Shown: piece after piece, positions 9,303 through 43,012 of the stretch
Layout of the letters: each line of letters opens with the position of its first letter
Position numbering within the stretch: the first letter of the stretch is position 1
DNA from: Marsupella aquatica
Lineage: Eukaryota; Plantae; Marchantiophyta
Direction of reading: 5' to 3'
DNA length: 64,000 nucleotides
NCBI GenBank assembly: GCA_973895155.1
Contig: OZ316893.1
Coordinates: forward strand, 26,834,798-26,898,797
The notes under the pieces: generated by a model
What the model saw: only the letters and a program-made list of their open reading frames with translations
What the model was told of the DNA's origin: nothing
The model's database searches: none
Program-made: the position numbers and the translations under genes

Positions 9303-9632
9303 TGTCACACCATTTAGAGTAATAGTAAAGTATATCGTACTATCTAGGGTATAGAGGTTTTATACGTGTGCTATATGAGCACTTTGTGTTTAGTTTGAGT
9401 TGGTGTGAGGGATAGTTATCCCCTTGTGCTGGCTCAAAGGCCTCATTATTCAATGTTGAGCCTTTGAGCATGAGCTTGGTGGCTATGGTGTGGCTGACCA
9501 GGTTGTGTGCATGTAACGTGGATTCCTTGAAGCACAAGGTGCGTTGGGCTTGACATATATGTGTGATCGCATCGGACGGGATTGATGTTGGATTAGCACT
9601 GATCGTTGTTCGATTTCATCCATTGAAGATTA
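9303..9632 (+). repeat. Terminal repeat A1 (330 bp)
   Basis: Colinear with 42322-42651, about 11 substitutions counted by eye. Confidence 0.93.
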
Positions 9633-10213
9633 CATTGAAAGATCATTGCAAGTTGATTCGAAGCTATTTTGAAGCTTGCTGTATTGCAGAGTTGATCCAT
9701 GGTAGCTTGGATTGTTGAGATCTTGCTGGTTGATTTGTGGTAGCTCAAGTCAGATCAGCCGTTGGTAGATTGGAGATTGTGAGCTATTGATTGCTCTGAG
9801 AGTACAACTTGGTGCTGTTTGAAGCTCTCTGATAGTTTGTTCATTGAAGTCCTCTCTGGAGTTGATTACCGGATTGACATTTGGAGCTTCTCGAAGCTAT
9901 GGCAATGAGGGACTGATCAAAGATCAGAAGGCACCTCAAGTGGTAGTTGCTACATTGTGTTTTTGGAGTTCTAGTCCTTATTGATTGCGTTGCAGCATCG
10001 CAAAGGCTATTGCGGATTTGAGATTCGTTGATGGATTGTACACTTTTACGAAGAAAGTGACAATCAAATGTTGGTGAATTGCGTTGTCGGCGTCACGATG
10101 GAGTCCGCGTTGCGACGAGGTGCGGCGACGACCTAGGGCACAAGGAAAATGACAATATTGTTGAACAGTGTTTTGGTCCGAGAATTGCGGCATGTTTTGT
10201 GGCACGCCTTGTT

Positions 10214-10643
10214 TTGGACTGGGATCATCCGAGTCCAATTGTGGGTTGTCTCTTGAGACTTCATTTTGACTCAAAGTTGGATTTGGATTGGGATCATCCG
10301 AGTCCAATCGTGGGCCTCACTTTGACTCAAAGTTGAATTTGGACTGGGATCATCCCAATCCAACTATACATTGGTAATTTTGGACCCCATTTGGACTTGA
10401 AGTTGAAGTTGGACTGGGATCATCCCAATCCAACAGTACATTGACAACGTTAGAGACTTGATTTTGGGCGAAGGTGAATTTGGATTGGGATCATCCCAGT
10501 CCAACTGTATGTTGGCGTGTCCAGAGACCTCATCTGGACCTAAAAGTGGATTTGGATTAGGATCAACCCAATCCAACTGTATCTTGGCGACTTCACCTGT
10601 GTAGAGGACGTGAAGGACTTGGACTGGGATCATCCCACTCCAA
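10214..10643. repeat. Array of seven 25-bp palindromes TTGGAYTGGGAT-C-ATCCCARTCCAA in the retroelement leader
   Basis: Copies start at 10214, 10283, 10339, 10409, 10480, 10552 and 10619 (period 56-72 bp). Confidence 0.92.
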
Positions 10644-11123
10644 CTTGTGGACCGGGCGTCCGGATGACTATTGAATGGATTTGAATTGGAGGCTCACCCC
10701 GACGTAGCAAAGTGTGGCGGGTGTGAAGGGCTCCCTCAGGCTCATCTCGGCGTTTCAAGGTGACTCATGACGAGGGGCGTGAGGGCGAAACAAGAGCCAG
10801 ACCGGAGCGGGCCGCAAGGTAGCTTGCTGGTACGTGAGGAGTAGTTGACAATTGGGTGGTGGTTTGGAGTGCCTAAGTTGGTGCATAACTTCAAGGGGGA
10901 GGTCATCCATCCCAAAGCTATTCCTCATGCGCGTGCTTAACCATGGGGTTCTTATGGCATGTAGTGTACCCACAAGCTTTCACAACTTGTTGTCTAAGTT
11001 AAAGGGCCAAGGGGCTTTATACACTTATTAGTTTGTCTAGAGACCTGTTTTGAACCAAATCAGAAGCTACTTAGAGGTTTTTGATACTTCTGAATCCATC
11101 TAGATGCATAGATTGGATCAATT

Positions 11124-11844
11124 TTGCATGGATTCTTAGCTACAACCTTGGGGCATTGTGAAGTCTATTATGAAGGTGATGGTAATGATTCAGGGCAGAT
11201 TTGTCATCACGGATTCTTTGGGTGCTACGGGACTGTCCGAGGGACAGAGGACTGTTTCACTCGAAGTGGGGTGCCGTTTCGGCCAACAACATTGATAGCA
11301 ATTGCAAGTGCAGCTTCAGATAGTGATTCTGACGAGGGCTCTATGACTAGTTCTCCTTGTCATCAGGTGATTGCACCTTTGTTGTGGGATATGGAAGAGA
11401 TGTACGGGGCTACAAAGGGCCCACGATGATACTCTGGTGCAGTTGGCATGATTGATCTGGATGACTTCATCCAAGAGTTTGATACGTGGTGCGATATGCA
11501 GTCATTACGTAATGCCACGTTGTTTACCTCTTTCATGGCATGGAAGGGATTATTTCAGCATTTAGAGGGGCCACCCATGGATGACTACCATGAGTTTTGG
11601 AAGGCTCATTTGGTTTAGATTAAGGCATGGAGGCAGCATTGGTCGCCTAATTATGTGTCCATCACCTATGGCACTAGAGCGGCTGCCCAACCCATTGCTA
11701 CAACTATTGCTTCTTCTAGCAGCACTAGCCAGAGTGGCACACCATCTACCAGTACCACTCCAACAACATCCATCGCTACTCCTACCGGTGTGATTGTGAT
11801 AGGGGTTGGAGTTGCGCCAACATTTAATCCCGTGGTGGAGTTCT
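11124..11844 (+). pseudogene. gag: gag 5' part, with in-frame stops, cut by CACTA-1
   Basis: One frame runs through ..IDLDDFIQEFDTWCDMQ..AWKGLFQHLEG..PTFNPVVEF. Removing CACTA-1 plus one TCT rejoins it in frame to FEVLKQNYQG at 25775. Confidence 0.75.
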
Positions 11845-14541
11845 CACTAGAAGAAACCGGCCCTATCTGAGACCCTCCCTTACATGACTTACTTGAGACC
11901 TTTGGAAATTAGTGACTCCAAGGTTATTGGTGTCATCTTTGTTACACCTTCTCAACTAAGTTTTGGTGAATTTTTGGAGAGTCATATCTATAACTATTTG
12001 GAGTGTTGCAATTGTAACTTAGTGTAGGCAATTATTTTGAAGTTTTATAAGTGACTCAGCACAATTATAATAGCGCTTTCTGCCATATTTATCACCATGG
12101 TTGCACATATATAAGAACAATATAACTTTGGCTCTTATTAAATAATAATGCCGACCCACATCCCAAATCCAACCCATACATATATACTTTATATGTATGA
12201 TTGACAAAATGATTATAGGTATATGTACCGGAGGTCGGTGCAATTGCAAGTCGTGCACCATGATGCAGGCCACTGGTTACTCCATCATACAAAGAGAAAG
12301 ACACACACTGAACCCACTAACATCATTTGGCAGCATTCTGTCTCCAAATATACCCCTTGGCCAATTTCAAATGGTTGCAACTCCCTTCATCTAGGAATAT
12401 TGAACAGCCCAATATTAGGGACTCTTTTTGTTAAGGGTACAATGCAATGCCTTTGCCGCAAGACCACTTCTACCTACTCTTCCTTGTAATGCGTGTTGCC
12501 CTCAATTGGCTTCATGAACCCCTTCACCTAATGGACCATGCCACAAGTTTCCACGTGTTACATGGTAATGCCTTTGCCCATTGACTGTTTTTCCCAAACC
12601 CCTTGTGCCAAAACCCTTGGGAGAAACGACGAGTGCCTTCGCGCGCACAGAGTGTCGGCATTTGGCGAGCGAGAAGGAAGAGCCGAACATCGTCAGGCTT
12701 GGGCCCTAGGTTTCCTGAGTGAATCCTATCGAGCTTCTTTGAGTGTCTTGTCTCCGCTGTGCGCTTGCAGTCAAAGGCTTGGATTCTCGCTACTATTGGG
12801 AGCTCGGGGTTGGAATGAGGGTTGAGTGATTGGCATTTTGTTGGTAGTGGAAGGAGCTGTGGGTTTAGGAGGCTGCTTATTGCAAGCACAAAACATTGCA
12901 GCGGTGACATTGCTAGGTTTTGCTACTGTGCTGAGTGAGGTTGAGGCTGGGTCCAGAGTTTACAAAGGTTGTCGGGAGGTTTATCGCGGATGACTGGCGA
13001 TTGGTGAGGCCTATTTGCATTCATCTCCACTATCATTGGGTACCCGAGATACAACGATCGACCTTCTATACAGAGGCGAGGAAGTGACGAGAACCTACAA
13101 CTCTTTGCGGGAATGCGTGGTCTTCTGCTTACCTGATTGCCCTCATGCTTGACTGTAAATACATTAGTAAAGTTTTGCTTTGGCTCAACTTTGGTCTTTT
13201 TTGGCCTTGCGTGACTGCGCTCACTTCTCTCGGTTTCCAGTGTGCAGTTGGCTAAAGACCTGGATGTCATGCTGTGAGTGCAAGCTGCTAGTAGTTGTCC
13301 ATAGCTTGGGGAAAGCGGTGGGGACTGAGGCCACAAAGGAGTTTGACCTGCGCTTTTTTTTCTTTGCAGCAAGAGCGAGAGTGAGACGAGTTACAAATTG
13401 AGTTTCATTGAGCTGCTGCCCTGGGCTTGGCGGAGGTCCTACACTCTTGTGTCGCTCACTTGTTCAGCTGCGGTGGGAGCGGGCTTTTGGTAGTGACCTG
13501 TTCAGTTGCAGTGGGAGCTGACAACTTTGGTGGTTGTGGTGTTGAGCTTCTGAGGAGGGCAAGCAACTGCGTGATGTGCCCTTGAGTGAATGTCTCTTGG
13601 AGGAGCTGCGAAGTGGTGAAAGGGGAAGGAGGTGAGCTCGGGCCTGGAAGCCATGTGCTTCTCCAACATTTTTGCACAATGCAATGCTGCTCAATCATTT
13701 ATCCTTCCTCTAAAGCTGAGTGTGACGCATCGACCTTTGACGGGAGTATCTGCATTACAGTTTGCTACATACGGCTGCTCTCTGTGTGGCAATCGCCAAT
13801 AGCTAGCGCAATGGAGGGTTCGACGTCAACTTTGAGTCATTGATCAGTGCACACTACATCGCTCTCCCTTTGCTAAACCCTTTCTTTTGGCTTGGTTCTT
13901 GGTGCCTTTGGCATAGGAGCGACGTTATTGCTAATCAACTCCCGAATCAACTTTGGAGGTGCGGGTTAGAAGGGGTTGGAGAGAGGAGGTCCAAACCGAG
14001 AATGCCCTTCACCGTCAACGGTTTCTACTAGTCCCGGCCATGCAGCTGAAAGTGCGCTTCTTTCAGGTGTCGTAGCATTCTGCCAGCCGGGTGCTTGGAC
14101 TGCAGAGAAGAGCAGCCACAGTCATTCAGTTCTTCTCCTAGCTCAGCTGCGCATTGTCAACCATCGAGCGCTGCTGCGCGCTAGCTGTGAACCCCAAGAG
14201 GAGCTGCGACAAGGAGGAGATGCAACCAAGAGGAGATGCGACGAAGAGGAGATGCAACCAAGAGAAGCTGCTGCATCCCACATTGAGTTGGACATTGAGG
14301 TAGGGACGTGAGCTACGCACTTTCAACCATCAAGCAACCACCAAGCTCGGCAGCGCTCTGGGATTTGTTGGCCACAGCAGACAAAGCGGAAGACAAAGGT
14401 GAGTGTTCGTGCACCGTTAGAGTAACCGCAAGTACTCTATTACATGCCTCGTTGTTCTCTATTACATGCCTTGTTCTCCCGCCCACTGTTTCCTGCGATT
14501 TTCTTTCTTCCATAAGAGAATGGTGATTTCTTCTTCTATCA

Positions 14542-14797
14542 CTTGATCTTTGAATCATGGAACTGCTTGGTACTTTCTCGCTTGCACAGAGAGACAGGGA
14601 CTGTCGTAGTCTTCATGATCTGGATGCAAGGGAACCGAACTCTATGACAAGAAGCCATCTCATCATACATCTGCTCTGCAGATCCGTTTCTTGTGGTATC
14701 ACAATATTCCTTGTACATGTTGTGATAACCTGTATGACTCTGATACGTGGACCCAGATACCGAAGTTCTTAATTGTGGTGGGCTTCTTTTCGAAGAT
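14542..14797 (-). pseudogene. RPL18a: Captured exon of 60S ribosomal protein L18a
   Basis: [15 protein letters not shown] (frameshift) [56 protein letters not shown], preceded by acceptor CTACCAG|ATC. The ORF track labels 14539..14820 as +, but that peptide reads from the minus strand. Confidence 0.9.
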
Positions 14798-15806
14798 CTG
14801 GTAGACACATTATTCAGCATTTGCTAACTTCGAAACTAGAAGGGTAACACATTAAACAACAGAGAAACTCACAACATCCTCCTTTGGTCCTTCAGAGTCT
14901 GTACTTTGATTCTGAAGTTTGACTGAGTTTTTGTTTACTAAAAGAATGTGACTGTGTAAGAGTTCCGTTTGGCAGTGGATTGGTTGAAGCACTTCATGCT
15001 AGTGTGTTGTCCACAGCTCTTCAACCAGCTTTCGTCTTCCTTGTCTTTCACCACTTATGATGACATCAATTCAGCTAAGACCATAGAAGGTTCCAAAGCA
15101 TCTAACTTGTAAAATCGCATTCTGTTACATCAAGGACTAAGGTGTTGGGTGCCAAAGGAGACAGCACAACAAACACGCTGAAAAGACTTCAGGACTGGGT
15201 TCAACAAGGTAGTGAAGGTGCTTAGAGCCATAGTAAGTATGCATTCTGTATCTTTCTCTGTTGATGTGAGCTTGTGCATAATGGGAGTTGTAGTTGGCAA
15301 GAGTTCCAAATATGAATAGATCCAGAAGTATGTGATCATGTACTTGCTCTATAAAGTTTCTGAAGATATAAGCATTTTCTGTTAGACCAGGCAACTTGGG
15401 AGTTGGTAAGTGTCACCTGCATCTGAGGGGCTACACCGGGGCATAAATGGAGGTTCACTTGCACAACACGACAACCAGTGAATTTTCTCTCTGCTGCAAC
15501 CTGCAAGGTGAGACTTTCGGTCTTTCTGGATGAAAAAACAGGAGTTTAATATGATTGATATACATGTCCGTCGAGAATATGGGTTTATCACCAAGCTCTT
15601 TGTCTTAGGAAACTCATAAACTCAGAATCAAATATGTACTATGCACGTTTCATGCTATGTGTATACTATGACCTGTAGTTGGAACCAAGACAATGAGTGG
15701 GAACTGATTAGTTTAGGTGGTTGCTGTTGGCGAGGCAAGTCGACCTCCTGCTCACCTTGCTCATCAAAGGACGTGAACAGAGGACATCACAACGAAAGCA
15801 ACACTT

Positions 15807-16256
15807 ATGGTGAGGACCCGCAACGCTGAACATGTGCGACTTGCACGCAAGGCAGAGATGTTGCGCCTTGAGTATGTCAGACTTGGGATCCTTCCAGCCC
15901 AGTCTGCATGGTACTTTGAGTACCCTGTTGTTTCCAGGAACAACTACAGCCGGCCTCTACCTGCTTCAGTACCCTTCCCGACATCCTTGGTATTTGTGTC
16001 TCTTGTACATGACCCGCCACAAATTAGGTTCCAAGGGTGTGTACACAGTTGCCAATATGACTGTCCTGCCTGTAGGGCTTCTGGCCCAGAATTGGATGAC
16101 CGTTCTCTTGGATGCCGATTTTTGCACAGAGCACAATGTATCATCTGGAACCACTCGCCATCCTGCAGTGTGCCTGGTGATGTCACTTGTCTTGCCCTCC
16201 CAGACCCCACCACCGGTGACTTTGGTGTCTACACATGTTTGGATCACATGCTCTAG
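15807..16256 (+). CDS. Cys/His-rich hypothetical protein (149 aa) inside CACTA-1
   Basis: ATG-initiated open frame co-oriented with the other cargo ORFs. It has a CVHSC..DCPAC..GCRFLHRAQC..H..C pattern; no family recognised. Confidence 0.4.
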   Translation: MVRTRNAEHVRLARKAEMLRLEYVRLGILPAQSAWYFEYPVVSRNNYSRPLPASVPFPTSLVFVSLVHDPPQIRFQGCVHSCQYDCPACRASGPELDDRSLGCRFLHRAQCIIWNHSPSCSVPGDVTCLALPDPTTGDFGVYTCLDHML

Positions 16257-16954
16257 AGGACCACTTGTCACACCGCATGCACAGACCAGATACCATTGAC
16301 CTATAGCTTAACACTCTGACTTCAACACAGAGGATATTTACTTAAAATTTTGATGTATGAGCAATTTTGGGTCCAGGGTTTAGGGTCAACAGTACATAAC
16401 TTATATCCTATTATGCCTGCACTAAGCAAAATATCCTAATTTAAGAGGCTAGCAAACTCGCATAAAAGTCTCTATTGAAAGACTGCTTTCATGACTGCTT
16501 TAACCTGGTGAACATTGCAACGTTGAATGAATTAATGGGCCATGTGATAATATGCAAAATGATTTATGCCTCACTTATTTGTCTCAGCCACTATCATAAC
16601 CTATTTAGGATGTATAAATTTCAACCCTTATGACACTGCTTCATACCAATCCTCTTCGAAGAATGCCTGTTTTACATGTCACGACTATTGTATGTGATTC
16701 AAATGCATGAAATGTTGTTGCAGATCTCCTTTGGTGAATCATAGCCACAATTAAAATTGAAGTGTTGGTGGAGAAATTGTATTAGGGGATCAGTTTTGTG
16801 TGTGGGCTCAACATACCAAAAGTATGTGTGCTCTGCATCCTTGTGTGGCCATTCCAATTCATTGCAGTAGCAAATGCCTTTGTACCTTAAATGCTAAATA
16901 TATTTTACTTTCTGTGCAGTCTGCTAAATTGTAGAGTCTATCTCATGCGCAGGC

Positions 16955-17635
16955 ATGGCACGGCCTAAAATTCAAGCCAAAAAGCGTGTGACAGAGGTGA
17001 GAAACACAGGTGTACTTGGGGTAGATGCTACTAACTTCTCTGCAAGTCAGATTTTCCAGAAGGCAGCTCATTGTTGTGCCATTTGTGACGATGGTGGGGG
17101 CCTGGTCATTTGTGAGGGCCCTTGCATGAGGCATTTCCACCTCAACCCGGAGTCTGACCTTGCTGCAGAAAACAACTGTCCAGGGGTGGGCCTCCCGTCA
17201 ACACACCAGGGAGACTGGATGTGCACTGATTGTTTGGAGAAGCAGGCTAAGTGTGCACAGTGTGGGAAGTTGGGGTCCTATGAGGGCTCTGTTGATGCTG
17301 CAGCAAATGTTAGGAAATGTCCAGACCGTTTTTGTGTGAGATTTTTCTGTTTTGAGTGTTTGCCTGCTCATGCCACAGCTTGCCCACTTCATAGGTGCAA
17401 GGCATGTGGTGAGCATGATGATGACTACTGGACTGACATAGTCCACTGTGCTAGGTGTCCCACTATGTGGCACTATCATTGCCTGAAAGATCATCAAGCA
17501 GAGGGTTATGCTTGTGACAGAGAAATCTATGATCACTCTGCACATGGTGTTGATCGATGGATATTTTATTGTCATCGCCATGCCATTGATCCTACCTCGC
17601 GCACTCCTGTGAGAGATCACATATCTTGGCTGTGA
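16955..17635 (+). CDS. Stand-alone EDM2-like multi-PHD-finger protein (226 aa), CACTA cargo
   Basis: CAICDDGG.L..CEGPCMRHFH, C..C.KLGS, CPLHRC..C, CARCP..WH..CL and IFYC..H.ID....TPVRDHI follow the order of the EDM2/NSD-type PHD cassette. The frame is intact. Confidence 0.82.
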   Translation: MARPKIQAKKRVTEVRNTGVLGVDATNFSASQIFQKAAHCCAICDDGGGLVICEGPCMRHFHLNPESDLAAENNCPGVGLPSTHQGDWMCTDCLEKQAKCAQCGKLGSYEGSVDAAANVRKCPDRFCVRFFCFECLPAHATACPLHRCKACGEHDDDYWTDIVHCARCPTMWHYHCLKDHQAEGYACDREIYDHSAHGVDRWIFYCHRHAIDPTSRTPVRDHISWL

Positions 17636-18221
17636 AGCTGAACATTGTACATGCACAGTGCACCTGATGTGGATGTACTATTTTTTGAGATTGCAGAGAT
17701 TCCAATTTTGAAAAGGAGTTGGGTAGGCGAGTTTATATAGGCAGCACTTATCTTGTGCTCTGGCGTCAGTGGCTGGGTACATGCCTATACAAACTTATCC
17801 TTACAAGCCTTCTTGGAAGTATTTAGGCTGAGTGGTCATTTTCATAAACACTTTCATCAGACTGCTAAATTAAAACAGGACTTCTAAGTTGTAAGCGTAT
17901 AAATTATCAGGCATGCAATTAATCAAATTGCCCTATAAGTTTGTCATTGAATGTATCCTCCTTTACAACAAAATATGTATGTGCCATGACAAGTTGGTTG
18001 CACTTCATTTCACCACGGATATGGATTTTGTAGTATATATTCAAACAATGTCCTGCATCCGTGCAGGTGCCTAGTACGTATTGTTCACATATCCCTTGTA
18101 CCTATCAAAATCGGACCTGAGCACCAGTGGGCCAGATCAACTCAAAAAGCAGGAATTTTGTTGTCCTTGTATTGTCAGGTGAACCCATTCTTCCAAAATT
18201 CACTGTCATCACGTAGAGTGT

Positions 18222-19100
18222 GTGTACATGGAGCCTGGTAAACGTAGAAAGTGTGACCACCCAGCAGTGTTTATAGGGGTCAGAGCGATTTTGGTCCATG
18301 GCCAGCATGGGTTGACCAAAGTGCATTGGCCAACTGTACAGAAACGATTCTCTGAGCTCCATGGCACTGTAGTTCAGGACATCACTCCAGAGACTACACA
18401 TGTTGTTGCAGGGACATGGCTATCAGTGATAAAGAAGTGGTCATGGTCCTACATGAATTCTGCAATTACTAAGCAAGGCCTAAAAGCAGTTGAGGCCTCT
18501 TGGATCACAGATTCCATAGCACATAAGATTGTACAGGATACTGAGCAATATGAGTTGTGGGAGGATGAAGAAGCTTCTGCATCAGCTTGGGCTGAACAAG
18601 AAGTCTGGGAAGCAAAGGCACGGCTTGCTGATCTCCAATATGGACCTGTACTCAACAAAGGACAGAGCTCTACAAGGCTGAAGTGTATGTTGGCTGAGGA
18701 GACGAAGCAACCAACCCCCATTCTGAAAGTGCTGAGCATGGTATTTGTGGAGGCGGGAATTGGAGAGGTTAAGTGCAAAGTGTACAAGTCCACAGTGCTT
18801 GACCTAGGTGGGACAGTGGAGGAGAATATAACAGAGGACACCACTCATCTCATTACTAAGTCATATCCCAAAGCCTGCCGCAAGTTTGGGAAGGGAGACA
18901 TTCGCTTTTATGTCATGTCCCATAATGTGTTTGTGGTTTCATATGCTTGGCTTGTGGAATCAGTAGCAGCTGGGAAGCGTCAAAACCCAATGGACTATGA
19001 TCTTTTTGAGGCCTGGCCACGGAAGGGTCAGGATCCTTACAGAGAGGACTATGAGACAACAAGTGAGGAATGGGTCATTAGCGATTCTGAATCAGAGTGA
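18222..19100 (+). CDS. Double-BRCT-domain protein (~291 aa), CACTA cargo
   Basis: Two repeats: LHGTVVQDITPETTHVV..WITDSI..QYEL and LGGTVEENITEDTTHLI..WLVESV..DYDL. Intact frame with an acidic tail. Confidence 0.82.
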   Translation: MYMEPGKRRKCDHPAVFIGVRAILVHGQHGLTKVHWPTVQKRFSELHGTVVQDITPETTHVVAGTWLSVIKKWSWSYMNSAITKQGLKAVEASWITDSIAHKIVQDTEQYELWEDEEASASAWAEQEVWEAKARLADLQYGPVLNKGQSSTRLKCMLAEETKQPTPILKVLSMVFVEAGIGEVKCKVYKSTVLDLGGTVEENITEDTTHLITKSYPKACRKFGKGDIRFYVMSHNVFVVSYAWLVESVAAGKRQNPMDYDLFEAWPRKGQDPYREDYETTSEEWVISDSESE

Positions 19101-19533
19101 GGAGTAGTAGCATCAGTTTGGATACAAGTTTTTTTGTATAAATCAGATCATTGAAATAAATGTGATCTTTGAACTAATGTAACTTGTTATGGTTGGTGGC
19201 AGTTGGGCTTATTTTACTGTTGGCGGATTGTTGTTTCCTGCTGCCTGGGGGTGTCACTGTAAACGTACATGCAGAGGCGGTACATTTGAGGACAGCGGAG
19301 GAGGTGGTGACACCCTCCAACATTTAGGAATTTTGTGTCATTCACTTGACAATAGGTACACTACTTGCGAACCTGTTTTTTTCTTTTGGGGTGGTTTAGG
19401 GTTTGTGAGAATTTAGTACACGTTATGTTAACTCTTTTGGCAGATACAATCAGGGATATATGGAACACAAATACCACCATTAGGCATCCTTGTTCACTGC
19501 TGTCCATGACTGCAGAGCTCCCAGCCTGTTACA

Positions 19534-22500: not shown

Positions 22501-23265
22501 GAGTATGAGTCATTGAAGGCGGCCCATCCCACTGCAGGAACAACTTTTCCAGGTTTCATGGAGTGGATCAGAGTGGCAATTAGAGAGCATCACGAGACCC
22601 ACCCAAACATGGATGCAGATGTTTACCTACTGTCTAATGCCCCTAGCCTGAAAGTGAAGACTTACAAACGGATGAGAGCATATGGGAATCACTTCCGAGT
22701 GAAGGATGGTGACAGTGCCTACAGGGTGACGAATGACTGCGGGCTCATCACTGTATTTGAGTAACAGAGCCACAATCACGACAGGGCCTGGATGGAGATG
22801 GGATATGTGGGAGAATTAGTTGACATATGGGCTCTGGACTATGGGGCGGTGTCCAGTCCTGTGATTCTTATGAAAGGTTCATGGGTGCGGCAGGATTGGC
22901 TTGGTAACAGGGCTACCATGAAGAGAGACAACGACGGTTTCTTGCTGGCCAATTTCAGAGGGAAATTGCCCGAATGGTCTGAGCCATTTGTGTTTCCTAG
23001 TCAGGTGGAGCAAGCTTTCTTCCTGGATGTGGAAGACTCCCCAGGTTGGCGTGTAGTGTGTCATAAACAGGCCAGGCAACGTCGGATGGAAGGATCAAAC
23101 CTTGAGTTTCATTTACACTCTCATAGTGCCTTTGATCGTCGGCGTTCAGACCAAGTGCCTGTAGTTCATGATAGCGGGGACTTCATTCCTGTGACAAGGG
23201 TAGATGCATTTGCTGAAGGAGGCGAATTCAGAGATGCAGATGCCAACAGTGTGCCTGTGCCATGA
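19534..23265 (+). pseudogene. CACTA-1 TnpD-type transposase (transposase-associated domain, Transposase_21, DUF4218, DUF4216)
   Basis: Motifs RCPCAIC, IHACPDG, LRHFPLIPRLQR, RNVRLGLSLDGVNPF, DVMHIEKN, KSHDYH, WLYPLERYM and EPFVFPSQVEQAF. Introns at 21358-21480 and 22383-22499. Premature stops at 21829 and 22762. Confidence 0.93.
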
Positions 23266-23420
23266 GTAATGTGAATTGTTTGCATGGACATTAGTGAGGG
23301 GAAGGATGTGTAATAAAGTAATTCTGAAGCAACACAGATGTATGGATGGATGCCTGGTGATTGTGGTTGCATTGTGTTATACGGGGTGACCATAGATGAC
23401 ATGTTTTTGTGGTCCAGTAG

Positions 23421-31900: not shown

Positions 31901-32092
31901 CAACAACGCTTGATGTGACCGCAGGGCGGACAATCTTGCGTGTGCGTGAAGTGTTGCCTTCTGGAGTCCTTATGTTGGAAGGGCGTGATGGTATGGTTTG
32001 GAAGGATCATGTGCGTAATTGTGCACCATGTCACCTTCCAAACATTGATGGCACTGTGGATCCAAGCTTGGCACATGTACGTGCTAGCTTGA

Positions 32093-32232
32093 AGTGTATG
32101 TTGTGTGGGTCTGCTCAGGAAGCAGCTACTATGTTGATTTGTGATAGGTGTTCTAGAGGATGGCACATATCGTGTTTGGCACCACCCTTGCACATGATTC
32201 CTAGCGGATCATGGTTTTGTCCTCAATGTTGG
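32093..32232 (+). CDS. PHD finger at the integrase C-terminus
   Basis: CMLC..MLICDRC..GWHISCL.PPL..IP.GSWFCPQC (C4HC3). Confidence 0.92.
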
Positions 32233-32399
32233 TGATGCCGACTAGTTATCATTTGTGTTCTTATGGAAGATATAGATTGCAGGTAGGTGATCGATGGGGC
32301 TCACTTGCACTCGGCCTCCTGATCTTCGCACCTAAAAAGGTGTATATTAACCTTGTAGGACTCATGGCTAGCTAGAGTTAGGGGACCTCACTCCCAGCT

Positions 32400-32409
32400 A
32401 GGGGGGCGA
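32400..32409 (+). other. Polypurine tract
   Basis: AGGGGGGCGA lies immediately before repeat B1. Confidence 0.65.
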
Positions 32410-33384
32410 TTTTGGGTTTTGGGCATGTGTGGACATTGGTTCCATTTGTACTCCATTCTCTTATGTTTGTGTTAGTGGATTGTGAATATGTTTGGATATG
32501 TGTGACAAGCGATGTATGTTGCACTAGTACATTTTAGGGCCATTATCCGATAGCTATTCCGTCGGATCCCTTCGGAAACTTCATTTCGGAAAAATCAACT
32601 ATCCGATGTAACCCGCTTCGCAATATCCCATCCAATCCTCATCGGAAATCAACCATCGGACTTACTTCGGACTTTCCGTTGATGATGCCGACGGACTTTC
32701 CGATTCCAACCCATTCGCAAACCTGCACATCCGATCCAATACGTATCGGACACCAACAAACAGACCTTCTCTCAAAACAACCATTGTCCGATAGTAATGG
32801 TATGGGATAGTTCCATAGTTTTTGCTACGTACATTGCGATGCGTGTAGTATCGGAGTTTACGATACGTTTAGTATCGGAGTTTGCCTTTGGAGAATTATC
32901 GGATATTGCGTTAGATTTGGTATCGGATAGTGCGATGTAATGAGGTTTGGAAAATCCAATGACGTTGCCATCGGACACATTGTTTTGATGTTTTGGTTTT
33001 GTTGGAGGGGTCCGATGCGGAAAGGATCGGATGCTGTGAAGGGGATTGAAACGAAAGGACCGATGAAGGTGCAAACGGACATCATAACGGATGGCTTAAT
33101 TTGTTACAATAGCTACGGTTTCATGGGTGGTTATTTTGGGTTTGAGAACATCAACCAATATATTAGGGTCCAAAGGAGGCTCAAAACATGTGGTCAAAAT
33201 CTCATATTAAAAAAGGGGATGACCCCGATATGTACAAAATGGAATGGGCCTACCTAGTAGACCCATCTCAGCGACTGTTTGCTCCATGGGAACACCTAAA
33301 TGGAGCACTGAGTAGAGACTACACTCCATGGCACCTGCTAAGATCTAATCAAAGCTACCAGACCTACCTACACGGCACTAACCT

Positions 33385-35900
33385 CTAAAAAGATGTGTTC
33401 CGTCCCTTCTTCTTCTTGTGGCGAGAGCGAAGCTGGGGAACAGGTGCGGGATCCACAACCGGTGGAGCCACCTGTTGACCAGATGGTGGGTATAATCTTG
33501 TCCTACCCCCTGACCCACTAGATGCACCGCTAGGCACGGTAGAAGTCCCACCAACCCCTGACACAACAGAGTGAAAGGAGGCCTCGCCCCCCGGCAGACC
33601 TACTAGAGTGATGAGAGGCTGCGGCTGCGGATGATGCATGTGGCCCATGTCGTGCTGTACTGCCACCTGACTCACGAGATGGCGCTAGACCCCTAGAGCC
33701 ACCATCGTCCAAGTCACCACTGCCTCGACAAGGGGGGCTAGGTGCAGCAGATACTTCTCAACGAGGGGGGTTAGGTGCAGAGCATACTCCTGAGCGATGG
33801 TGTGGGCCTGCACCACCTCTACTACCCCCTGAAGGCCCCGGCCTCGTAGCCCGCGATGCTCCCCGTGACTGATGAGAGCTCACACCATCAACAGCATGTG
33901 ACCCACCTCCCCTCCCTCCCAATATGAGGGTAACATGAGGTATCTGGGCAGTAGGGGCAACTCTAGGAACAGTCTGGGCAACTATAGGAACAGTCTGGGA
34001 AACTCTAGGAATAGTCGCGGTAGCTCTAGGCTCCCTCTGCAACCCTGCCTCAGATGTTGAGTCCTCATCATCTGACTCCCCAGACCCCTCCTCCTCCTCC
34101 TGCACATTACAATTAATTAAAGTAAGGAACTTGGTCAAAACTCTACAAATGTAGCAGTGCTCTAGCTAAGCAAAATATTGTCCCAACTTAGGTAGGGGGA
34201 GGGAACAATTACCTCTCCCAGCTCATCCTCAATCTATCACTTTAGAGCACGGGGTCCATCCCTTGCTGCTAGTTCCCTCTCTTTTGGATCAATGGGACGA
34301 CCATACTCCCTCTCCTAACATTTCAAAATAAAAAGACCACTTCAGCACAATAAATTTAGTTTCAACCATAAAATCCACTCCCTATACCAAACTTCTCCCT
34401 CTCAAAACTCTATGCCTTCTATAACTTCTATAACTTACTTAACCCCTAGCAAATACTCTAAACCCTAAAAAAATCACCAGTGAACTCAAGAAGGGGTCCA
34501 TTCCGGAATTTCATGCAAGTCAAGCATCCCTATCCTATGCAATCAAAAAAACCCTAAACCCTACCCGTTTTAAACAAACTAAACCCAAATTCACTCAAAA
34601 TATACTCGTTCCGATGCAGCATCCGATATGGATTCTATTGGACTGCTATTGGACCCCTCATCCGCTAAATTTTAATGTTACTATGTCCGATGCGGGTTAC
34701 GACGAACAAACATCGGACTTAACAGTCCTGAGAGCAAAACAAGGGGGATCGGATCGTGATAAAGCAAAACGGGACAACCAAAATGTTCACTCTTCGCAAG
34801 AGAAGTCAGGTGGTCAGGGAGAGGAGCAAGGGAGGAGGGAGCTAGGAGGGAGGAGGGAGGAGCCACTTACAAACTCGGCCTTCAATCGATTGGAGCCGCC
34901 TTGCCCCATCCGGTGAGTCACAATGGGCCTCTCTTCTACTCGCTTCAATGCTGCTATGATGTTTGCAGGAGGTTTTTGAAGTCTTGCTGCTTGAGCTGCC
35001 CACTGTCGAAGGTTCAGTTGGAGGGGTGCCATGTCAATATCCTCCCCGGCAGCTCACTTTTCTTCTGCAATCCTGATTTCGTTGTCCCAATGTCGTCTCT
35101 TTAGCCAGGCTCGAACAGAGAGCTCCTCCTCAAGCCAAGCTGTCCATGCATCCTGGGGAATCACATCTGGACACTGGTGCTCCCTGACCACCTCTGCATC
35201 TATTGGCAAATCAGTAAGGTAATCCCTCATCTTCTCCCGCACATGATTCCTTGCATCTGAAACAGAGGCTGAAATTTGACTGTTTAGAAATTTGTCTTCA
35301 AGGTGGGCTCCGTTCTTGAATCTTTCTTTGATCTGCTCCTGAACCCTGGTCCTCTCCTCCTCTGTTTTCTTACCCCAGTAGTCTAGTGGCCCAAAATTTG
35401 CCCTCACAACCTGCAAGAATTGGCTGCAGAACAAATTGTAGCTCCTAGGTATTGGAGCCCCACCTGAATTGATAGCCGGCTCAGGTTGCAGAGCCCTCTC
35501 AGCCTCCCTTCGCCTTTGATCCTCAACTAGCAGCCTCTCTGCCTCCCTAGCTTATCTTCAAAGCTTTTTCTCCCTTTTCCGAGGAGAGAGAGCCTCCTCA
35601 CCATTTGGCCTAGCCCTCTCCGCCTCCTTTCTCTTCTTCCTCGCCTCTTTCTCTGTTGCGAGGCCTGCTGCAGCAGCCTTCTCTGCCTCACCTTTTGAGG
35701 CATCAAGCAAAACCTGAAGCATCGAGACTACTCTTGCTGCATCCTCCACTGAAAGCCCTGCCTTGGCCACAAACAACTCCCTCATTATCTCCTCATATGG
35801 CCGGGATGGCCCAGCCCCGTCTCCCCCATCACCCAATCCTCCTTCCCCCACCATCTCTCCTCCTTCCCGAGCTCCTCCCCTCTCGGCCTTAGAAAATTTT
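33385..35900 (-). pseudogene. Divergently oriented, spliced TnpA/Ptta-like accessory gene of CACTA-2
   Basis: W.......R....I..RF, CPDVIPQDAW..W and HRMGQGG (Transposase_24-like), with donor TTT|GTAAGT near 34870. Acidic and low-complexity 3' exons; stops and frameshifts present. Confidence 0.6.
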
Positions 35901-36852
35901 CTGAAATGACTGATGTGCGAAGGAAGCCCCGTAGTGTGCGCCTTCGCAAGCGCATCGGGATTTACGGATTTCAAATTTTGAATCAAGTCCGATTGTTTCT
36001 GCTTCGAAACATCCGTAGCGTATAATATTGAATGTCAAATCGGACCTTCCGATGCGTGTTGCATCGGACCCCTCCTCCGGCTCGTTATTCCTCGCTTTTA
36101 TGAAGTGTGATACGTTGGAAACGGTATCGGACCCCTCGTATAATATTATCGGATAGGGGGTTAAGTAGGGCTTATGTAGGGGTCATGTAGGTGTATGTGG
36201 GAAGGACCGGTTGTATTAACATTTAATCATCATGTATGTTTGAATCAGGTTTTATAGGGCCCTACATGTGGACACATACCGCAGGGGGTTGGCAACGGTG
36301 TCGTGGATGTGATATATTGACCTTCTTGCAATTTTGGGGTTTGTACCTGAATCCAGATTTTTTTGTGATATACTTTGGTTATCCATGTTCAATTTGCTAA
36401 TATTCGTCTTTGGGTTTGATGTGTAGTACCTTGGTTTTGAAGGGGTGGTTAGGCTTTTGTAGGGTGTTAGCTAGGTAGGTTATTTTGCAATGCACAGTGT
36501 GAGACCGCGCATCCAAAAGGTATGATGCCCCATCCATTTATTCCTTGATCCTTTAGGCTATTTCAGGTTTGGCATGCAAGTTTTTATCATATGTGCTTGA
36601 GCTTGTTTTCGGAAATTGTAGATCATGCATGCTCATTATGAAAATGTCCACCTTGCAAAGATTTTGGATATCCCCACACTTTGTGTATAGAGATACGGCC
36701 TAGTAGGCACGGCAGAGCGCGGGTATCATTGAGGTATAGCAAGTGTTGTATATATGTCTCTCATTCAATTGTTTTTCTAGACATAAATATTTGTCTTGCT
36801 GGTTTTTTTCTTTCATCCAACATATTGTCATGGTTGTATGATATATATGCAG

Positions 36853-38169
36853 ATGTCTTGCTTCCAATAGTTCCACGTCGGATTCAAACTCAGACACGAG
36901 CTTGTCTGAGGAGGAGGTTCCTCCACCCCCCCCTCCAGACCAACCTCGTGCTCGGCCACTAGGGTCCATACCTTGTTGGTGTGTGAGATGTAAGGGACTT
37001 GTGGTTCGACATGCCTGGGAGACTTGTGAGCACATCAAAAACTATAGTCGCCACGAGGGTGATACACCAGGGTATTTGCCTAGCCAGGTAATAAATACGT
37101 CCCTCCTTCATTCCATGAAATTCCAATAATTAGTCCACAAATGCTAAATTACTTTACATCTAAACAACAATTCATGTATTGATTTGTGTCAAATCATTGT
37201 TTGTTGAAATAGGTGCCTTGTAGACCCCCACCTCCTCTGGTTGATAATGCTATGTGGTTGGAAGGGTTTCTAGCAAGGGCTAGTGAGTTGCTTGCATCTG
37301 CCCTTGCCCATCCACCTCTTAGTCCCCCTGCTCCTATCCCCACACATGCGCATGTAGACGAGGATGCACCGGTCTCTCGACCCGAGGAAATGGATACTAG
37401 GGTCCTACGTACACATTCACGGTCTCGCAGACATAGATGACAATATGAACTGGTGGAGCAGGTAGAGAATCGGGAGGAGGCGTTACGTAGTGATCGACCA
37501 CCCGGAAAAGGAGATTATATTTGTGTTGAGGGCCGGTTTGGACTATCTTATCTCACTGGTAGGGCTGCTGATGTTTGGAAGGACTTTTCTCCTAGTCTCT
37601 TCAAATTTCCAGATTTCATTCATACTGATGAACCAGTTGACATATGGGGTCGGCCTTGGATAGTGAAGGCATCCTCTATTGGTGCTGATATAGGATATGG
37701 TCTATATGCTTTGGAGGACATTGTGGTCCCTCCAAAGCCATGGAGACGTGGATATGACGGAGAGCACCTTTCCCGGCACCTTTTCCCTTACATTGGGGCT
37801 GTATTTCATGCAAAGAGTTGGAAGACTTTGTTGCGTCAGCACCCAAGCTGGGGGGTGTACGCCTTGAGGATGGACTCAGACCCAGATGAGGTTTTGACTA
37901 GGCCGTGGCATTGTAGGATGATTGATGGTGACCCTATTCAGAATGGTAATTTAGCAGGGTACATCAATAGTACAACGGGTAGAGGTAGAGATTTTGAGGC
38001 TAATGTAGAGTGGATCCAAATTTTTGGCCCTCCTAGAGATCCGTATTTTGTGAAACATATGGATGACCATATCATGACAGTAGCCATTAGGACTATTAGA
38101 GCCGGTGAGGAGATATTGTGTGAGTATGAGTGGGACGCCCCAAAATTGTCCCTACGTTGCCGTCCATGA
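36853..38169 (+). pseudogene. SET-domain gene: CxCxxC..H exon (to 37087) + SET exon (37213-38169)
   Basis: VKASSI..GYGLYALEDI, IDG..GNLAGYINS, ANV and AIRTIRAGEEILCEY. GT-AG intron 37088-37212 in phase 0. One CGA>TGA stop at 37438 and a probable +1 frameshift near the start. Confidence 0.82.
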
Positions 38170-38297
38170 TAGTATGTTGGACTTACATGCATGTAAATCT
38201 TACATTGAATTAATGAGATTCATGATGATTTATATATATATATTGATGATTGTAATGAGATTAATGTTAATGAGATTGCATTGATGTTGTATGATAG

Positions 38298-41200
38298 AAT
38301 CAATATGTACAATCTGATATTGGGGTCATATCACGAGCTATGCGACAACACATTGTTGAGGCCATGGTGGCCAACCATGGGCATGATGGAGGGATGCAGG
38401 AGGATGATGTACAACATGAGGGTGATAATCCTACTCAAGCACATCTGGATGAGGAGAGGGCCATGGATGAGGTCATGGACCAATTTTATGATGATGATGT
38501 TGATATTGGTATGGAGGATATGGGTACAGCTGATGACAACACCACTCATCCAAGACCTTCTAGGGGGGGACAGAACAAGGATTGGGAGGAGGCTCAACGT
38601 CATGCTCGTACTCGCATATTTGAGGGTAGCACCTTATCTCGGCTCTTTGCAATAATGTTGTTGCTGAATGTGCAACAAAGACATGGGGCTAGCAACCTAC
38701 TTTTGGATGATGTTTTTCGTACCTTGCATGATCACATTTTGCCACCAGGCAATACCATGCCAGCCTCTTGGAAGGAGGCAAAACAAGTGTTGAAGTCCAT
38801 TGGCCTCAAGTATGTAGTGATACATGCATGTGTGAATGATTGTATTCTTTTGAGGGGGGAGCATGAGAATGCAACTGCATGTCCTAAGTGTGAGAAGCCG
38901 CGCTACCGTGATGACATGTTGACAGGGAAGGTGCCTCAAAAGGTTATGCGATACTTTCCTCTCATCCCCCGATTGCGACATCAGTACCGTTGTGCAGAGT
39001 TAGCTGAGTACATGGTATGGCACTCAAAGAATCATTCTGATATGGCTACGAACTCTAGTGCCATGCGGATGATGGTTGACTCTCCTGCCAATCGATTTTT
39101 TGAGGGCAGATGGGGGGAGTTCAGCACTGAACCACGACATGTTCAACTTGGCTTGGCAGCTGATGGTATCAGCCCTTTTGCATTGGCGGGTAAAGCAAAA
39201 CCATATTCAGTATGGCCAGTAGTTTTGACTAACTACAATATCCTTCCATGGATGGCCATGAAGAAAGGTCATTTATTGCTCTCCATGATCATCTCGGGTC
39301 CTAAGCAAGTAAAAAAGATTGACATCTACTTGCAACCATTGATTGATGAGCTTTTGCAACTGTGGAGAGGAGTGGATTGTTATGACGGACGTCGCAATAT
39401 AGGAGGTGTACCTCGCACGTTTACCCTCAAGGCCATCCTTATGTGGACCATGCATGACCTACCAGGTATGACCTGATAAACCTTAGCTTATTTCCTTGAT
39501 GTACTACCTTAAATTTAGTGTGCATTAACCTTATTTCATAATTGGCTGGTTGTATATGGGCTTGGTACAGGGTTTGGGTATATCTCTGGATTGCAAACAT
39601 CAGACTATCGAGCTTGCCCTTCATGCGGACCGGATTTGGAGGGAGTGGCAAGACGCAAGTCAAGTACTTTGCGTAAGATAGTTTACATTGGTCATACCAA
39701 ATCTTCCAGCAGACCATCCTTGGAGGAGTGATCATTTCTTGTATGACATTGATGAGGGCCAACCTGATACTCGTCCTCAACCTCAGCGAAAGGATCCAAC
39801 ATATTGGAGAGAGGTATGGGAGAGAGTTCAAGACCCTGATGATCCATTACAGTTTCTCCGATGTGGCATGACCCGTTTATCTGCATTGTCACAGTTGCCA
39901 TATTGGTCAGAGATGCCCATTAATCACTTGTTGGATGCGATGCACATTGAGGGAAATGTGGGGAGATCATTGATTCGTCATCTATATGGGGAGAAGAACC
40001 ACAACTGGAGAGAAAGTTGTGAGGAGATGGGGATGCATGGTCTTTTGGGTTTTTGGCCATCTTTGGACCCCCTTGGTGATCCCCCTAGCATCCATCCTCC
40101 TTGGGTTTTGACCAGGGCAGAGCGCATAGAGTTTCGCAGACGGATTGGGTCAATGAGGTTTCCCACAGGTTATGGTGCCAATCTTCGTAAGGCATTTGGG
40201 GGGGATGATTCTCCAAAATGGCCATCGTACCTAAAAACACATGATTATCATCGGTTACTAGAACATGTCATTCCAGTTGAGATTATTGGATTGGGTAGTG
40301 AGGAACTTCGTGATGCTCTTTGGTCATTGGGCAAGTTTTTGAGATGGGTATGTCAGAAGGAGGTACCAGAGGATGACATTGCTGCGATGGAGATATTTGG
40401 AGTAGAGGTTGTTTGCAAGTTGGAGAAGGCACTTCCACCCTCATGCTTTGATGGTCAGGTTCATTTCCTCATACATTTAGTGCGTGAGGTAGCAATTGCA
40501 GGCCCAGTACATTGTCGATGGATGTATTGGGTAGAGCGTTACATGGGGGTGATGAAGTCATATGTCTCTAATCGGGCTAGGGTGGAAGGTAGCATTGCAG
40601 AGCGTCATCTTGGAGCAGAGAGTATGTTTTATTGTACAAACATAGTTGTCACACTAGATCCAAGGGCACCTAGGGGATGGATAGATGAGGCGGCACGAGA
40701 GGCAGACTATTAGGATGATAGACTCACTGGGGCATCAGGAGAGCATGGCTTAGGCTCAGCAGAGCGTTTGCAACTTACAACATTTATATTGTATAACTCA
40801 CCAGAGGTTGTAGGGGAGTGGACAACATTTTATGAGGAGGAGAAGCAAAATAGTCGACGGCCACGGTTGTTTCCCAAGTTTCACCCATACATGAAATCAA
40901 AGTTGTTAGAAGTGGATGCCTTGGTGGGTACCGGAGACAGTATATTACATTACCCACAAGTGACTGATAAGCTTCGTACCTTGGTTCATGGTCCACTGCT
41001 TAAAGTCACGACTCGGACGACAATGTGGTCAAAGGGGAGACATTTTTGTGTGGAACGACTTGATGAGAAGAGAGCAGCTACACAAGATTGTGGGGTGATG
41101 GGTTGAATTGGTTCACCCAGGATTCCTAGAGTAGCACGTCAAACATGAACCCCATTCGCTCCACCGTGGCCCATTATGGGAAGATTGATGAGATCCTGAC

Positions 41201-41543
41201 AGTGAAGTACCATGCACATACTACTTTGGAGGAGGTGGTATTTAAGTGCAAATGGTTCAAGATGAATCTTGTAGGCAACAATCGAACATGTGAAGATGAT
41301 GCGTGCGGATTTACCCGTTTGAAGACATCTGCAAATAGTGTCATTAGTTCTAATTGGAGGTCCTTAGATCCCTTTGCCTTCCCACGTCACCTTGAGCAGT
41401 GCTTTTACCTACCCTATCCAGATGACCCACATTGGTCCATTGTCATGCCTTATATCCCTAGATCACGGTCTATAGTCCAAGAGAGACCCAATGTCGTTGT
41501 AGTGGAAGACAACGACATCCCCGACCCTCCACAAGCTAGTTAG
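38298..41543 (+). pseudogene. CACTA-2 TnpD-type transposase
   Basis: IHACVNDC, MRYFPLIPRL, RHVQLGLAADGISPF, HDLPG (intron 39466-39570), LDAMHIEGN, KTHDYH, WMYWVERYM and DPFAFP..QCFY. Frameshift near 39695 and stop at 40711. Confidence 0.92.
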
Positions 41544-42321
41544 TATATTTTGTATGTAGCTAGGCCCCCCCCCAACCACACCACCTTCATGTTTTTTTAA
41601 TTGGCAATATAAAAGTTGGCATCATTACTTCTTTAATTGTCATGGTATGCACATGCCCAAAATCTCTTGGTTATATATAGAAGTGTCCTTACCTTATATA
41701 CCCTTCCTAAGAACCCCCCCGCCTTATGTCCCATTGACCGTCCCATGAAAAAGCCATCGGATTTCCATCGCACCTTCTAGAAACAGAAACCAGACTGATA
41801 CTTCCAACTACGGACTATTCCATATAAAACCCATCTGACACACATTTCCGATCCTCTCCACAACGTACACCTTCTCCTCCTTTGTTGACGAGATATCCGA
41901 TCCAACATCCGACGGACAATGTCTGACATAATTTTTTATGCACAAACTATCCGACCCTAAACCCAACGGACACAAATATCCGATGCATTCCATGACGGTC
42001 CTAGTCCGATACAACTACCAACGCAAACATCTTGCGATGCATTAAGGTTCGGACGAATTATGCGGTCATAGCGACATAGTTTCCGATATGTTTAGTGTTG
42101 GATACTGTCCGATAGTAGTACGATGGGACAGTGTATGCGATGGGTTTTACATCGGAATATGTAGATCCGATGGTATCAGGATCAGAAAATACGTTGCGGG
42201 GCATATCGGATATTGTCCGAAGTGTTTGGCATGGGATGGGTGACGTTTGGCTCAAAAGGAGTATCGGAAAACCGCCGAAAATGTACTAGTATTGTGTAGC
42301 AATGTGTATGCGCACGACAGC

Positions 42322-42651
42322 TGTCACACCATTTAGAGTGGTAGTAAAGTATATTGTACTATCTAGGGTATAGAGGTTTTGTATGTGTGCTATATGAGCA
42401 CTTTGTGTTTAGTTTGAGTTGGTGTGAGGGATAGTTATCCCCTTGTGTTGGCTCAAAGGCCTCATCTTTCAATGTTGAGCCTTTGAGCATGAGCTTGGTG
42501 GCTATGGTGTGGCTGACCAGGTTGTGTGCATGTAACGTGGATTCCTTGAAGCACAAGGTGCGTTGGGCTTGACATATATGTGTGATCGCGTCGGACGGGA
42601 TTGATGTTGGATTAGCACTGATCATTGTTCAATTTCATCCATTGAAGATTA
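42322..42651 (+). repeat. Repeat A2 (330 bp)
   Basis: Copy of 9303-9632. Confidence 0.93.
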
Positions 42652-42652
42652 T

Positions 42653-42791
42653 TGTGGATTTTGGGCATGTGTGGACATTGGTTCCATTTGTACTCCATTC
42701 TCTTATGTTTGTGTTAGTGGATTGTGACTATGGCGCTTGGATATGTGTGACAAGCGATGTATGTTGTGTAGCGATGTGTATGCACACGACA
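42653..42791 (+). repeat. Terminal repeat B2 (139 bp, TG...CA)
   Basis: Copy of B1, followed by TSD CCAT. Confidence 0.9.
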
Positions 42792-43012
42792 CCATTTATC
42801 CAAGCACACACTGCTTAGGATATAGTGTGCAACTTAGTTGACCCAACCACATCTCCAACTATGGTTATATGTCGTAATCCTAGACCTGCGAGTAAATACC
42901 TAACAATTAGGTGGTTAGTCTCTCATTTATTTTTGCTTGTTACCCTCCTTTCCAAGCCCAGGGGGCTACACTAGTTGTAGCACCATCTATTTGCGATCCT
43001 CAAAACCATTCA

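Follow-up and report, generated by a model that had tools for sequence, protein, structure and literature searches.

A Ty3-type retroelement with split direct repeats in a liverwort genome and its relatives, with integrated ends that match the halves of an internal palindrome

The window, a stretch of 64,000 nucleotides from the liverwort Marsupella aquatica (GenBank assembly GCA_973895155.1, contig OZ316893.1, positions 26,834,798 to 26,898,797), contains between positions 9303 and 42791 a retroelement interrupted by two nested CACTA transposons. With both insertions removed in silico, the element is 9,786 nt (~9.8 kb) long and consists of a repeat A1, a leader, gag, protease, a C5 methyltransferase, reverse transcriptase (RT), RNase H, integrase, a PHD finger and a polypurine tract (PPT), followed by B1, the dinucleotide GC, A2 and B2; the repeats are therefore arranged as A1...PPT-B1-GC-A2-B2. 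By self-BLAST, A1 and A2 are identical at 319 of 330 nt, and B1 and B2 match at 131 of 136 aligned nucleotides, with four gap columns, when the second CACTA is skipped. A 4-bp target-site duplication (TSD), CCAT, is present at 9299–9302 and 42792–42795, the window reading CCAT-TGTCAC at 9299–9308 and CACGACA-CCAT at 42785–42795. This arrangement, with its coordinates, had been proposed in a first-pass annotation made from the letters alone and is borne out here, as are the palindrome GACA-GC-TGTC at the B1/A2 joint (42316–42325) and the start of a B-GC-A unit right after the PPT (32400–32408). The target was an older multi-copy repeat (9276–9302 and 42792–42905); in contigs of the uninterrupted repeat (25 in sequencing run X1 and 20 in run X4) the left-to-right flank length, judged by eye, fits an exact 4-bp duplication. 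Stops and frameshifts mark the window element as an old, dead copy.

In its coding part the element belongs to Ty3/Gypsy, as the annotation had also concluded, describing a Ty3-type element with a DDE integrase. The order protease–RT–RNase H–integrase is that of the group, with the methyltransferase (DNMT) domain inserted between protease and RT; the DNMT3-like domain, the PHD finger and the self-priming site described below are additions to the annotation. The top solved matches of the RT are 4ol8 (E 1e-26) and Ty3-G Gag-Pol (E 1e-25), with six others ranking lower, and the H2C2 and D-D-E integrase is uninterrupted in two relatives. The TG..CA ends are also present, together with a TSD in the 4–6-bp range of the group. 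Two complete, identical terminal long terminal repeats (LTRs) bounded by a primer-binding site and a PPT are not found, the repeats being permuted. The features are collected in Table 1.

Table 1. Features of the retroelement and its nested insertions, in window coordinates
Feature	Position	Strand	Basis
Left TSD CCAT	9299..9302	+	sequence; empty-site contigs
A1 repeat, begins TGTC (right palindrome half), contains predicted promoter and transcript start	9303..9631	+	identity to A2
Predicted self-primer, 5' end of RNA; 2 changes relative to A2 in window copy	9445..9456	+	covariation in relatives
Putative primer-binding site, 12 nt complementary to A2 42464–42475	9632..9643	+	complementarity
~70-bp tandem repeats in 5' leader	10213..10645	+	self-comparison
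gag, N-terminal part, stops	11391..11844	+	tblastn, 78% to Marchantia-labelled proteins
Nested CACTA 1, TSD TCT; Tnp2 transposase, PHD-like and BRCT ORFs	11845..25771	+	inverted ends, domains
gag, C-terminal part with Cys/His knuckle, then aspartic protease (LLDTGA); frameshift, stops	25775..27750	+	sequence
C5 cytosine methyltransferase domain, DNMT3-like	27974..28960	+	PF00145; best solved matches DNMT3A
In-frame TAG then CAATCA, between gag-protease-DNMT and RT-RNase H-integrase frames; possible readthrough	29117..29125	+	sequence
RT and RNase H, stops, one frameshift	29189..30540	+	best solved match Ty3 RT, E 1.6e-26
Integrase: H2C2 zinc site, D-D-E core, C-terminal domain; frameshifts	30960..32090	+	PF17921, PF00665
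PHD finger at Pol end	32093..32232	+	PF00628
PPT, G-rich, adjoins B1	32400..32408	+	sequence; relatives have one at same position
B1, first part	32409..32521	+	match to B2
Nested CACTA 2, TSD TTG; SET-domain ORF, Tnp2 transposase	32522..42291	+	inverted ends, domains
B1, last part, ends GACA	42295..42319	+	match to B2
Palindrome GACA-GC-TGTC, predicted integrase cutting site; integrated ends lack the GC	42316..42325	.	2-nt spacer in 21/21 relatives
A2 with intact self-primer site 42464–42475	42322..42650	+	match to A1
B2, abuts A2 exactly at primer-site edge / PPT edge, one shared A; ends CACGACA	42651..42791	+	joint common to relatives
Right TSD CCAT	42792..42795	+	sequence

An alignment search with the integrase-PHD region gave the relatives used here, namely the best 80 of 479 metagenome loci and seven contigs from prokaryote assemblies, which form 61 clusters at 60 insertion sites (L056 shares its flank with L052–54). 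The seven contigs (L084–L090) lie in bacterial or archaeal metagenome-assembled genomes and are retroelements of this lineage, likely eukaryotic contamination. At 34 of the 60 sites the 3' end could be classified: twelve read PPT-B-nn-A-B, as in the window, twenty read PPT-B-flank and are repeat-less elements of the form A-internal-B, and two are fold-backs, in which PPT-B-nn-A continues into a primer-site copy and an A in inverted orientation. The two fold-backs are independent insertions (L007; L018/19), both with A2, the primer-site copy and an inverted A ending at GACA. An exact GACA terminates 26 of the 34 classifiable 3' ends; five have one change, one has two changes and two are truncated. 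At the 5' side, 14 of 15 ends start with TGTC, and B precedes A in none of the 15. A conventional two-LTR copy was not found among the classifiable relatives. The twelve B-nn-A-B insertions are independent and represent at least four repeat families. The repeat-less class is not older than the full class, with median distances of 0.082 and 0.088, respectively (p 0.19). Three contigs in which B-GC-A runs into the primer site (L041, L084, L090) were considered as candidates for conventional LTRs and rejected, being taken as collapsed assemblies.

The spacer of the palindrome is 2 nt long in all 21 loci, being GC in 11, AC in seven and AT, GT and AA in one each; all but one of the spacers other than GC are transitions from it. 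A perfect 16-bp palindrome is present in two loci that are only 41–44% identical in the integrase-PHD region. For 11 copies with both ends intact, the 4-bp TSD matches fully in seven and with one mismatch in two, and in none does it extend to 5 bp; two further copies with a damaged end were left out, and mismatched pairings, used as a control, matched in two of 110. From these comparisons the split layout with palindrome ends is a trait of the whole lineage, its copies beginning and ending at palindrome halves, and the DDE integrase likely cuts there with a 2-nt stagger. There is precedent for such cutting: according to the available text of PMC1180852, foamy-virus integrase cuts the palindromic LTR junction of two-LTR circles after CA on both strands, leaving a 5'-protruding AT, i.e., a 2-nt overhang. 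Cutting of two-LTR circle junctions by HIV-1 integrase is a further parallel. In those viruses the palindrome arises where the true cDNA ends are joined, and the route is a side path; the palindrome of the window element has a fixed internal position, and the joint between the cDNA ends is left uncut. Among bacterial DNA transposons, which do not use reverse transcription, IS3/IS911, IS21 and IS30 have a DDE enzyme that opens abutted ends with a 2–3-nt spacer.

The repeat layout is also that of the PAT/Ngaro type of DIRS elements, including SymbioDIRS-Dnmt3, which have the same A-coding-B-A-B split direct repeats and an internal B-A joint containing both ends (PMC5890265, as far as its text describes them). 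It could thus be supposed that a tyrosine recombinase, or a host recombination pathway, acts on a circle and that the integrase is incidental, all the more as Tf1 has an integrase-independent route (PMC11042837, in the part available). PAT/Ngaro elements have a tyrosine recombinase, whereas the window element has a DDE integrase, a PPT, TG..CA ends and 4-bp TSDs; no tyrosine recombinase Pfam family was matched in 12 six-frame translations at E 0.01, and the two uninterrupted relatives have no room for such a gene. Together with the uniform 4-bp TSDs of varied sequence, the TG..CA ends and the conserved D-D-E residues, this makes a recombinase or host pathway very improbable. The window element is Ty3-like in coding, priming and TSD but lacks the two terminal LTRs, having the PAT/Ngaro layout without the PAT/Ngaro enzyme.

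The family of the window element itself was followed in four public sequencing runs from two studies, which contain 26–44% of the sampled words and were mapped to the 3' repeats of the window at 80% likeness. Contigs departing from the window exactly at 42791 number 47, 27, 49 and 42 in the four runs; beyond this point the sequence is mixed (agreement 0.38–0.39) and includes new flanks as well as B-nn-A joints. The A2/B2 joint is bridged by three of the 32 records shown, with 21–30 differences, the contigs being 82–88% identical to the window. At the other end, about three distinct records begin at 42322–42323 after hundreds of unlike bases (32 shown of 3,989); these records, together with the relatives, are the basis for the 5' ends of the window's own family. 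That the window copy is old and twice interrupted might suggest a one-off rearrangement, a tandem deleted copy or an assembly artefact. The probability of this is practically negligible, as the layout recurs at 12 independent sites, which represent at least four repeat families, not one of the 15 5' ends has the conventional form, and contigs diverged from the window by the above amount cross the same joint. The first-pass annotation had itself named complete B-GC-A LTRs or differing joints as the check on its reading; what independent copies have is the same layout and the same joint.

The 12 nt directly after A1 are the reverse complement of A2 42464–42475, with a chance expectation of 0.0007 in 20,000 simulated sequences; A1's own copy of this self-primer carries two changes. 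The same complement is formed by different sequences in relatives, over 12 nt in L022, L050 and L040 (co-varied in the last), 13 nt in L055 and L084 and 16 nt in L041, and a 12-nt complement in L090 was found in a wider search. This is the signature of self-priming of the Tf1 type, which we infer for the lineage. Tf1/Sushi elements and the plant Tcn1 chromoviruses share the Ty3 domain order, and in them, too, the primer site has its complement within the 5' repeat (available text of PMC4600332 and PMC6317226). They are, however, chromoviruses with ordinary terminal LTRs; the window element differs by its PHD finger, its DNMT domain and its permuted repeats. The annotation had let A1 run on into TTACA as a conventional LTR would; the TTACA is there, but its ACA most likely is the start of the primer-binding site. 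No tRNA gene was found in the window. A TATA-like box about 30 nt upstream of the self-primer was seen by eye in four relatives; the window copy has none, and one contig per run has TATA inserted at that place. A local hairpin encloses the self-primer site in each of the three families that were folded (window 42450–42490; L013; L055); on unspliced RNA reading through from upstream, it could block the site.

At the A2/B2 joint of the window, the L022 family and L055, the base that precedes the primer site is joined to the one that follows the PPT, and one base is shared. Within one family the joint has the same length in eight copies of nine; the remaining copy carries an additional base on the PPT side. 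With the joint at the edges of primer site and PPT, and given the complement, the repeat made by reverse transcription is B-GC-A, as the annotation had it, and the ends of this repeat are not TG..CA. For PAT/Ngaro elements it has been proposed that such a joint is templated by RNA. Applied here, the integrase would make the ends at the palindrome, and the A/B joint would be copied from the RNA of the parent copy rather than formed in each cycle. The near-invariance of the joint within a family fits this, as does L047, in which a deletion ends at the 3' edge of the self-primer and the joint and B are still present. Priming after A1 with transfer to A2, however, leaves B2 uncopied, and the joint corresponds to the primer-site and PPT edges in three families of unrelated sequence, as if the ends of reverse transcription define it; we therefore consider a templated joint unlikely. 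In L047 the deletion brings pol next to A no more than 4 nt from the 3' edge of the self-primer, with the B end kept; it is possibly the product of a mis-aimed first strand transfer.

The layout, ends, TSDs, spacer, joints, complementarity and three product classes described so far are direct observations, and they can be accommodated in a cycle of four steps. In the first, RNA would start inside A1, about 30 nt past the TATA-like box, and its first 12 nt would prime the minus strand, in the manner of Tf1, at the site that directly follows A1. In the second, plus-strand synthesis from the PPT would give a cDNA of the form B-GC-A...B-GC-A, with ends lacking TG..CA. In the third, the integrase would pass over these cDNA ends and cut the palindromes after CA on both strands. 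A plain cDNA cut at both palindromes would yield A-internal-B, the commonest product, which is likely sterile because it has no downstream A for strand transfer. In the fourth step, the 3' end of the plus strand would jump, or be joined, to the start of a B, with which the primer site shares 1–6 nt, giving a right-end-extended substrate with three repeats; cutting of its outer two palindromes would produce the replication-competent A-internal-B-GC-A-B with a 4-bp TSD. A single-stranded tail at the primer-binding site is kept by about half of Tf1 cDNA (PMC11042837, in the same part of the text). We hold the first three steps, namely self-priming, a B-GC-A cDNA and cutting of palindromes by the integrase, with considerable confidence; for the asymmetric three-repeat cDNA as the substrate in the fourth, we put the chances as even.

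The fold-back copies are informative for this last step. Their structure means that the primer was copied into the plus strand and that a palindrome lying within longer DNA gave rise to ends, the middle palindrome remaining uncut. They show that the tail of the plus strand is able to prime on a different template, and that a pair of separate outer palindromes can serve while the middle one is skipped. A further indication comes from the mirror isomer, A-B-GC-A-internal-B, which is absent from the 15 5' ends (p 0.03 for five versus none, and 0.0003–0.002 calculated from the B-only class). Random opening of a circle with two repeats should yield this isomer as frequently as the full form, and so should a dimer of full cDNAs; the absence of the isomer places the three-repeat substrate first. 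The first-pass annotation had proposed a two-LTR circle opened at the palindrome; of this, integrated ends that are palindrome halves with 2 nt lost have stood, and a plain circle has not.

A modified circle deserves more weight. Self-primed linear cDNA would be closed into a two-LTR circle, of which the integrase would open one palindrome, nearly always that of the 5' repeat, while one-LTR circles would give A-internal-B. The A2/B2 joint is exactly what joining the right to the left end of the predicted cDNA would produce, the one copy with an extra PPT-side base resembles what end-joined circles can have, a single cut yields both ends, and retroviral integrases do cut palindromic circle junctions (PMC1180852 and PMC4372172, in the parts available). 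Two identical sites should open alike, however, and the mirror isomer is missing; the fold-back copies moreover require two separate cuts, with the middle site skipped. We thus rate the circle as a serious but less probable route than the three-repeat cDNA. L084, the single contig with overlapping ends (127 nt), was considered as evidence of a circle and rejected, since a collapsed assembly of a repeat gives the same overlap.

Several points weigh against the three-repeat cycle and the generality of the trait. The same product comes from a circle that is preferentially opened at the 5'-repeat site, recombination between the closely spaced A repeats of the mirror isomer could remove that isomer, and the template for the extra B-GC-A unit in the fourth step is conjecture. 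The A-internal-B class may partly come from later recombination between B1 and B2, on which the age comparison bears only weakly. Transcript start, priming, cutting and intermediate are all deduced from the sequences. The relatives are short-read metagenome contigs from few source assemblies, the best 80 of 479 loci, and 26 of the 60 sites are unclassified: two are cut by the contig end after B-nn-A, six have B-GC-A without a second B, one carries a deletion in its interior, one (L077/80/82) has a decayed B repeat and no palindrome, and the remaining 16 are either too short or without a recognisable layout, four of them (L035, L042, L073 and L088) despite at least 700 nt downstream. Two of the 11 TSDs differ at two positions, and the primer complement is weak in L081 and L086 (9 nt) and in L069 (8 nt; same site as L022). 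Taking both sides together, we consider it reasonably probable that a deep DNMT3/PHD Ty3 lineage of green plants has uncoupled the ends of reverse transcription from those of integration, with an integrase that would act as a site-specific endonuclease on an internal palindrome, a default product that would be sterile, and offspring arising only from head-to-tail cDNA, circular or with three repeats.

The closest proteins are labelled Marchantia, Calypogeia and Sphagnum, with identities of up to 64% for the DNMT domain among the longest matches and up to 81–83% for the integrase-PHD region. In a FastTree analysis of 130 aa, made without reference clades and therefore informative for nearest neighbours only, the window RT groups with Marchantia-labelled RTs. 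Both results point to a bryophyte as the likely host. Scans of viral contigs gave three distant matches to the methyltransferase and, with the integrase end, no match. A chromodomain was not matched in the Pfam scans, the C-terminus of Pol carrying the PHD finger. The DNMT domain lies between protease and RT in a bryophyte-like group (window, P0008, P0065); in the distant relatives P0022–P0024, P0029 and L088, one of them labelled Haematococcus, it separates RNase H from integrase. One unit of the 70-bp leader repeat recurs in pol at 27757–27797, just ahead of the DNMT domain.

The in-frame TAG of the window, followed by a CAR-YYA motif, recurs at the same boundary in L084 (3489–3497), L041 (5083–5091) and L036; in most loci of the L022 family the motif was not found there. 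The two uninterrupted relatives have exactly two in-frame ORFs (open reading frames), split by the TAG. We take this arrangement to resemble a leaky-stop, or readthrough, signal.

Both CACTA elements have inverted ends and 3-bp TSDs, the right end of the second being TAGTA rather than TAGTG; the first interrupts gag and the second B1. Each contains ORFs of chromatin type, at 16928–19100 (PHD-like, BRCT) in the first and at 37441–38169 (SET domain) in the second. Outside the retroelement, an L1-type long interspersed nuclear element (LINE) at 44162–50393 encodes DUF4283, a zinc knuckle, an endonuclease, an RT and zf-RVT; the region is bracketed by a 118-nt inverted repeat pair (43008–43125 and 54611–54728). 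Pieces of a host gene with an MSP domain and ankyrin repeats are on the minus strand at 2184–4462.

The annotation knew of no description of its circle-based integration route for an integrase-bearing plant element; the layout itself had been noted before. KnitGypsy-Dnmt3 of the charophyte alga Klebsormidium nitens is given, in the legend to Fig. 4c of de Mendoza et al. 2018 (PMC5890265), as having DIRS-structured repeats with Gypsy domains. By this legend it resembles the window element in combining a Gypsy Pol with a Dnmt3-like domain and a DIRS-like repeat layout; the available text of that paper confines itself to the one legend sentence, with no mention of ends, TSD, palindrome, priming or mechanism. 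Its host is a charophyte, whereas the window copy groups with Marchantia-labelled RTs, and no Klebsormidium-labelled sequence is among the 32, 35 and 6 matches of the protein searches. The two elements are probably kin, a likeness drawn by description and not by sequence. The annotation had also given split direct repeats as reported for Troyka, for which no support was found. The 2025 Troyka paper (PMC12440569), in its available text, contains neither "direct repeat" nor "circular", uses "split" in another sense and describes ordinary LTRs with CG..CG ends, 3-bp TSDs and occurrence in animals only; Troyka shares the Ty3-like domain order with the window element, which has TG..CA ends and a 4-bp TSD. 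A literature search outside subscription journals and Repbase turned up no description of the palindrome, of the priming or of the product classes. What the accessible literature already holds is thus a DIRS-like layout on an integrase-type Gypsy element, noted once in an alga, with its mechanism unexplained.

It has been debated, on the basis of in vitro and drug-reversal experiments, whether integrases of the retroviral type really use palindromic junctions of joined cDNA as substrates (PMC1180852 and PMC4372172, as far as their available text goes). Here, a natural lineage appears to depend on the cutting of an internal palindrome, making the question testable on a 16-bp site. Because paired terminal LTRs are absent and the commonest form has no repeats at all, elements of this kind are likely missed, or given wrong boundaries, by programs that search for two LTRs. 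The element also places a DNMT3-like domain in retrotransposons of bryophyte genomes, in line with Marchantia-labelled proteins that contain both RT and DNMT; a 2019 review (PMC6338049), in the text available, describes methylase-encoding transposons as absent from land plants such as tracheophytes. If the proposed cycle is true, it would be a distinct replication cycle among LTR retrotransposons and a eukaryotic counterpart of the insertion sequences that integrate from a circle junction.

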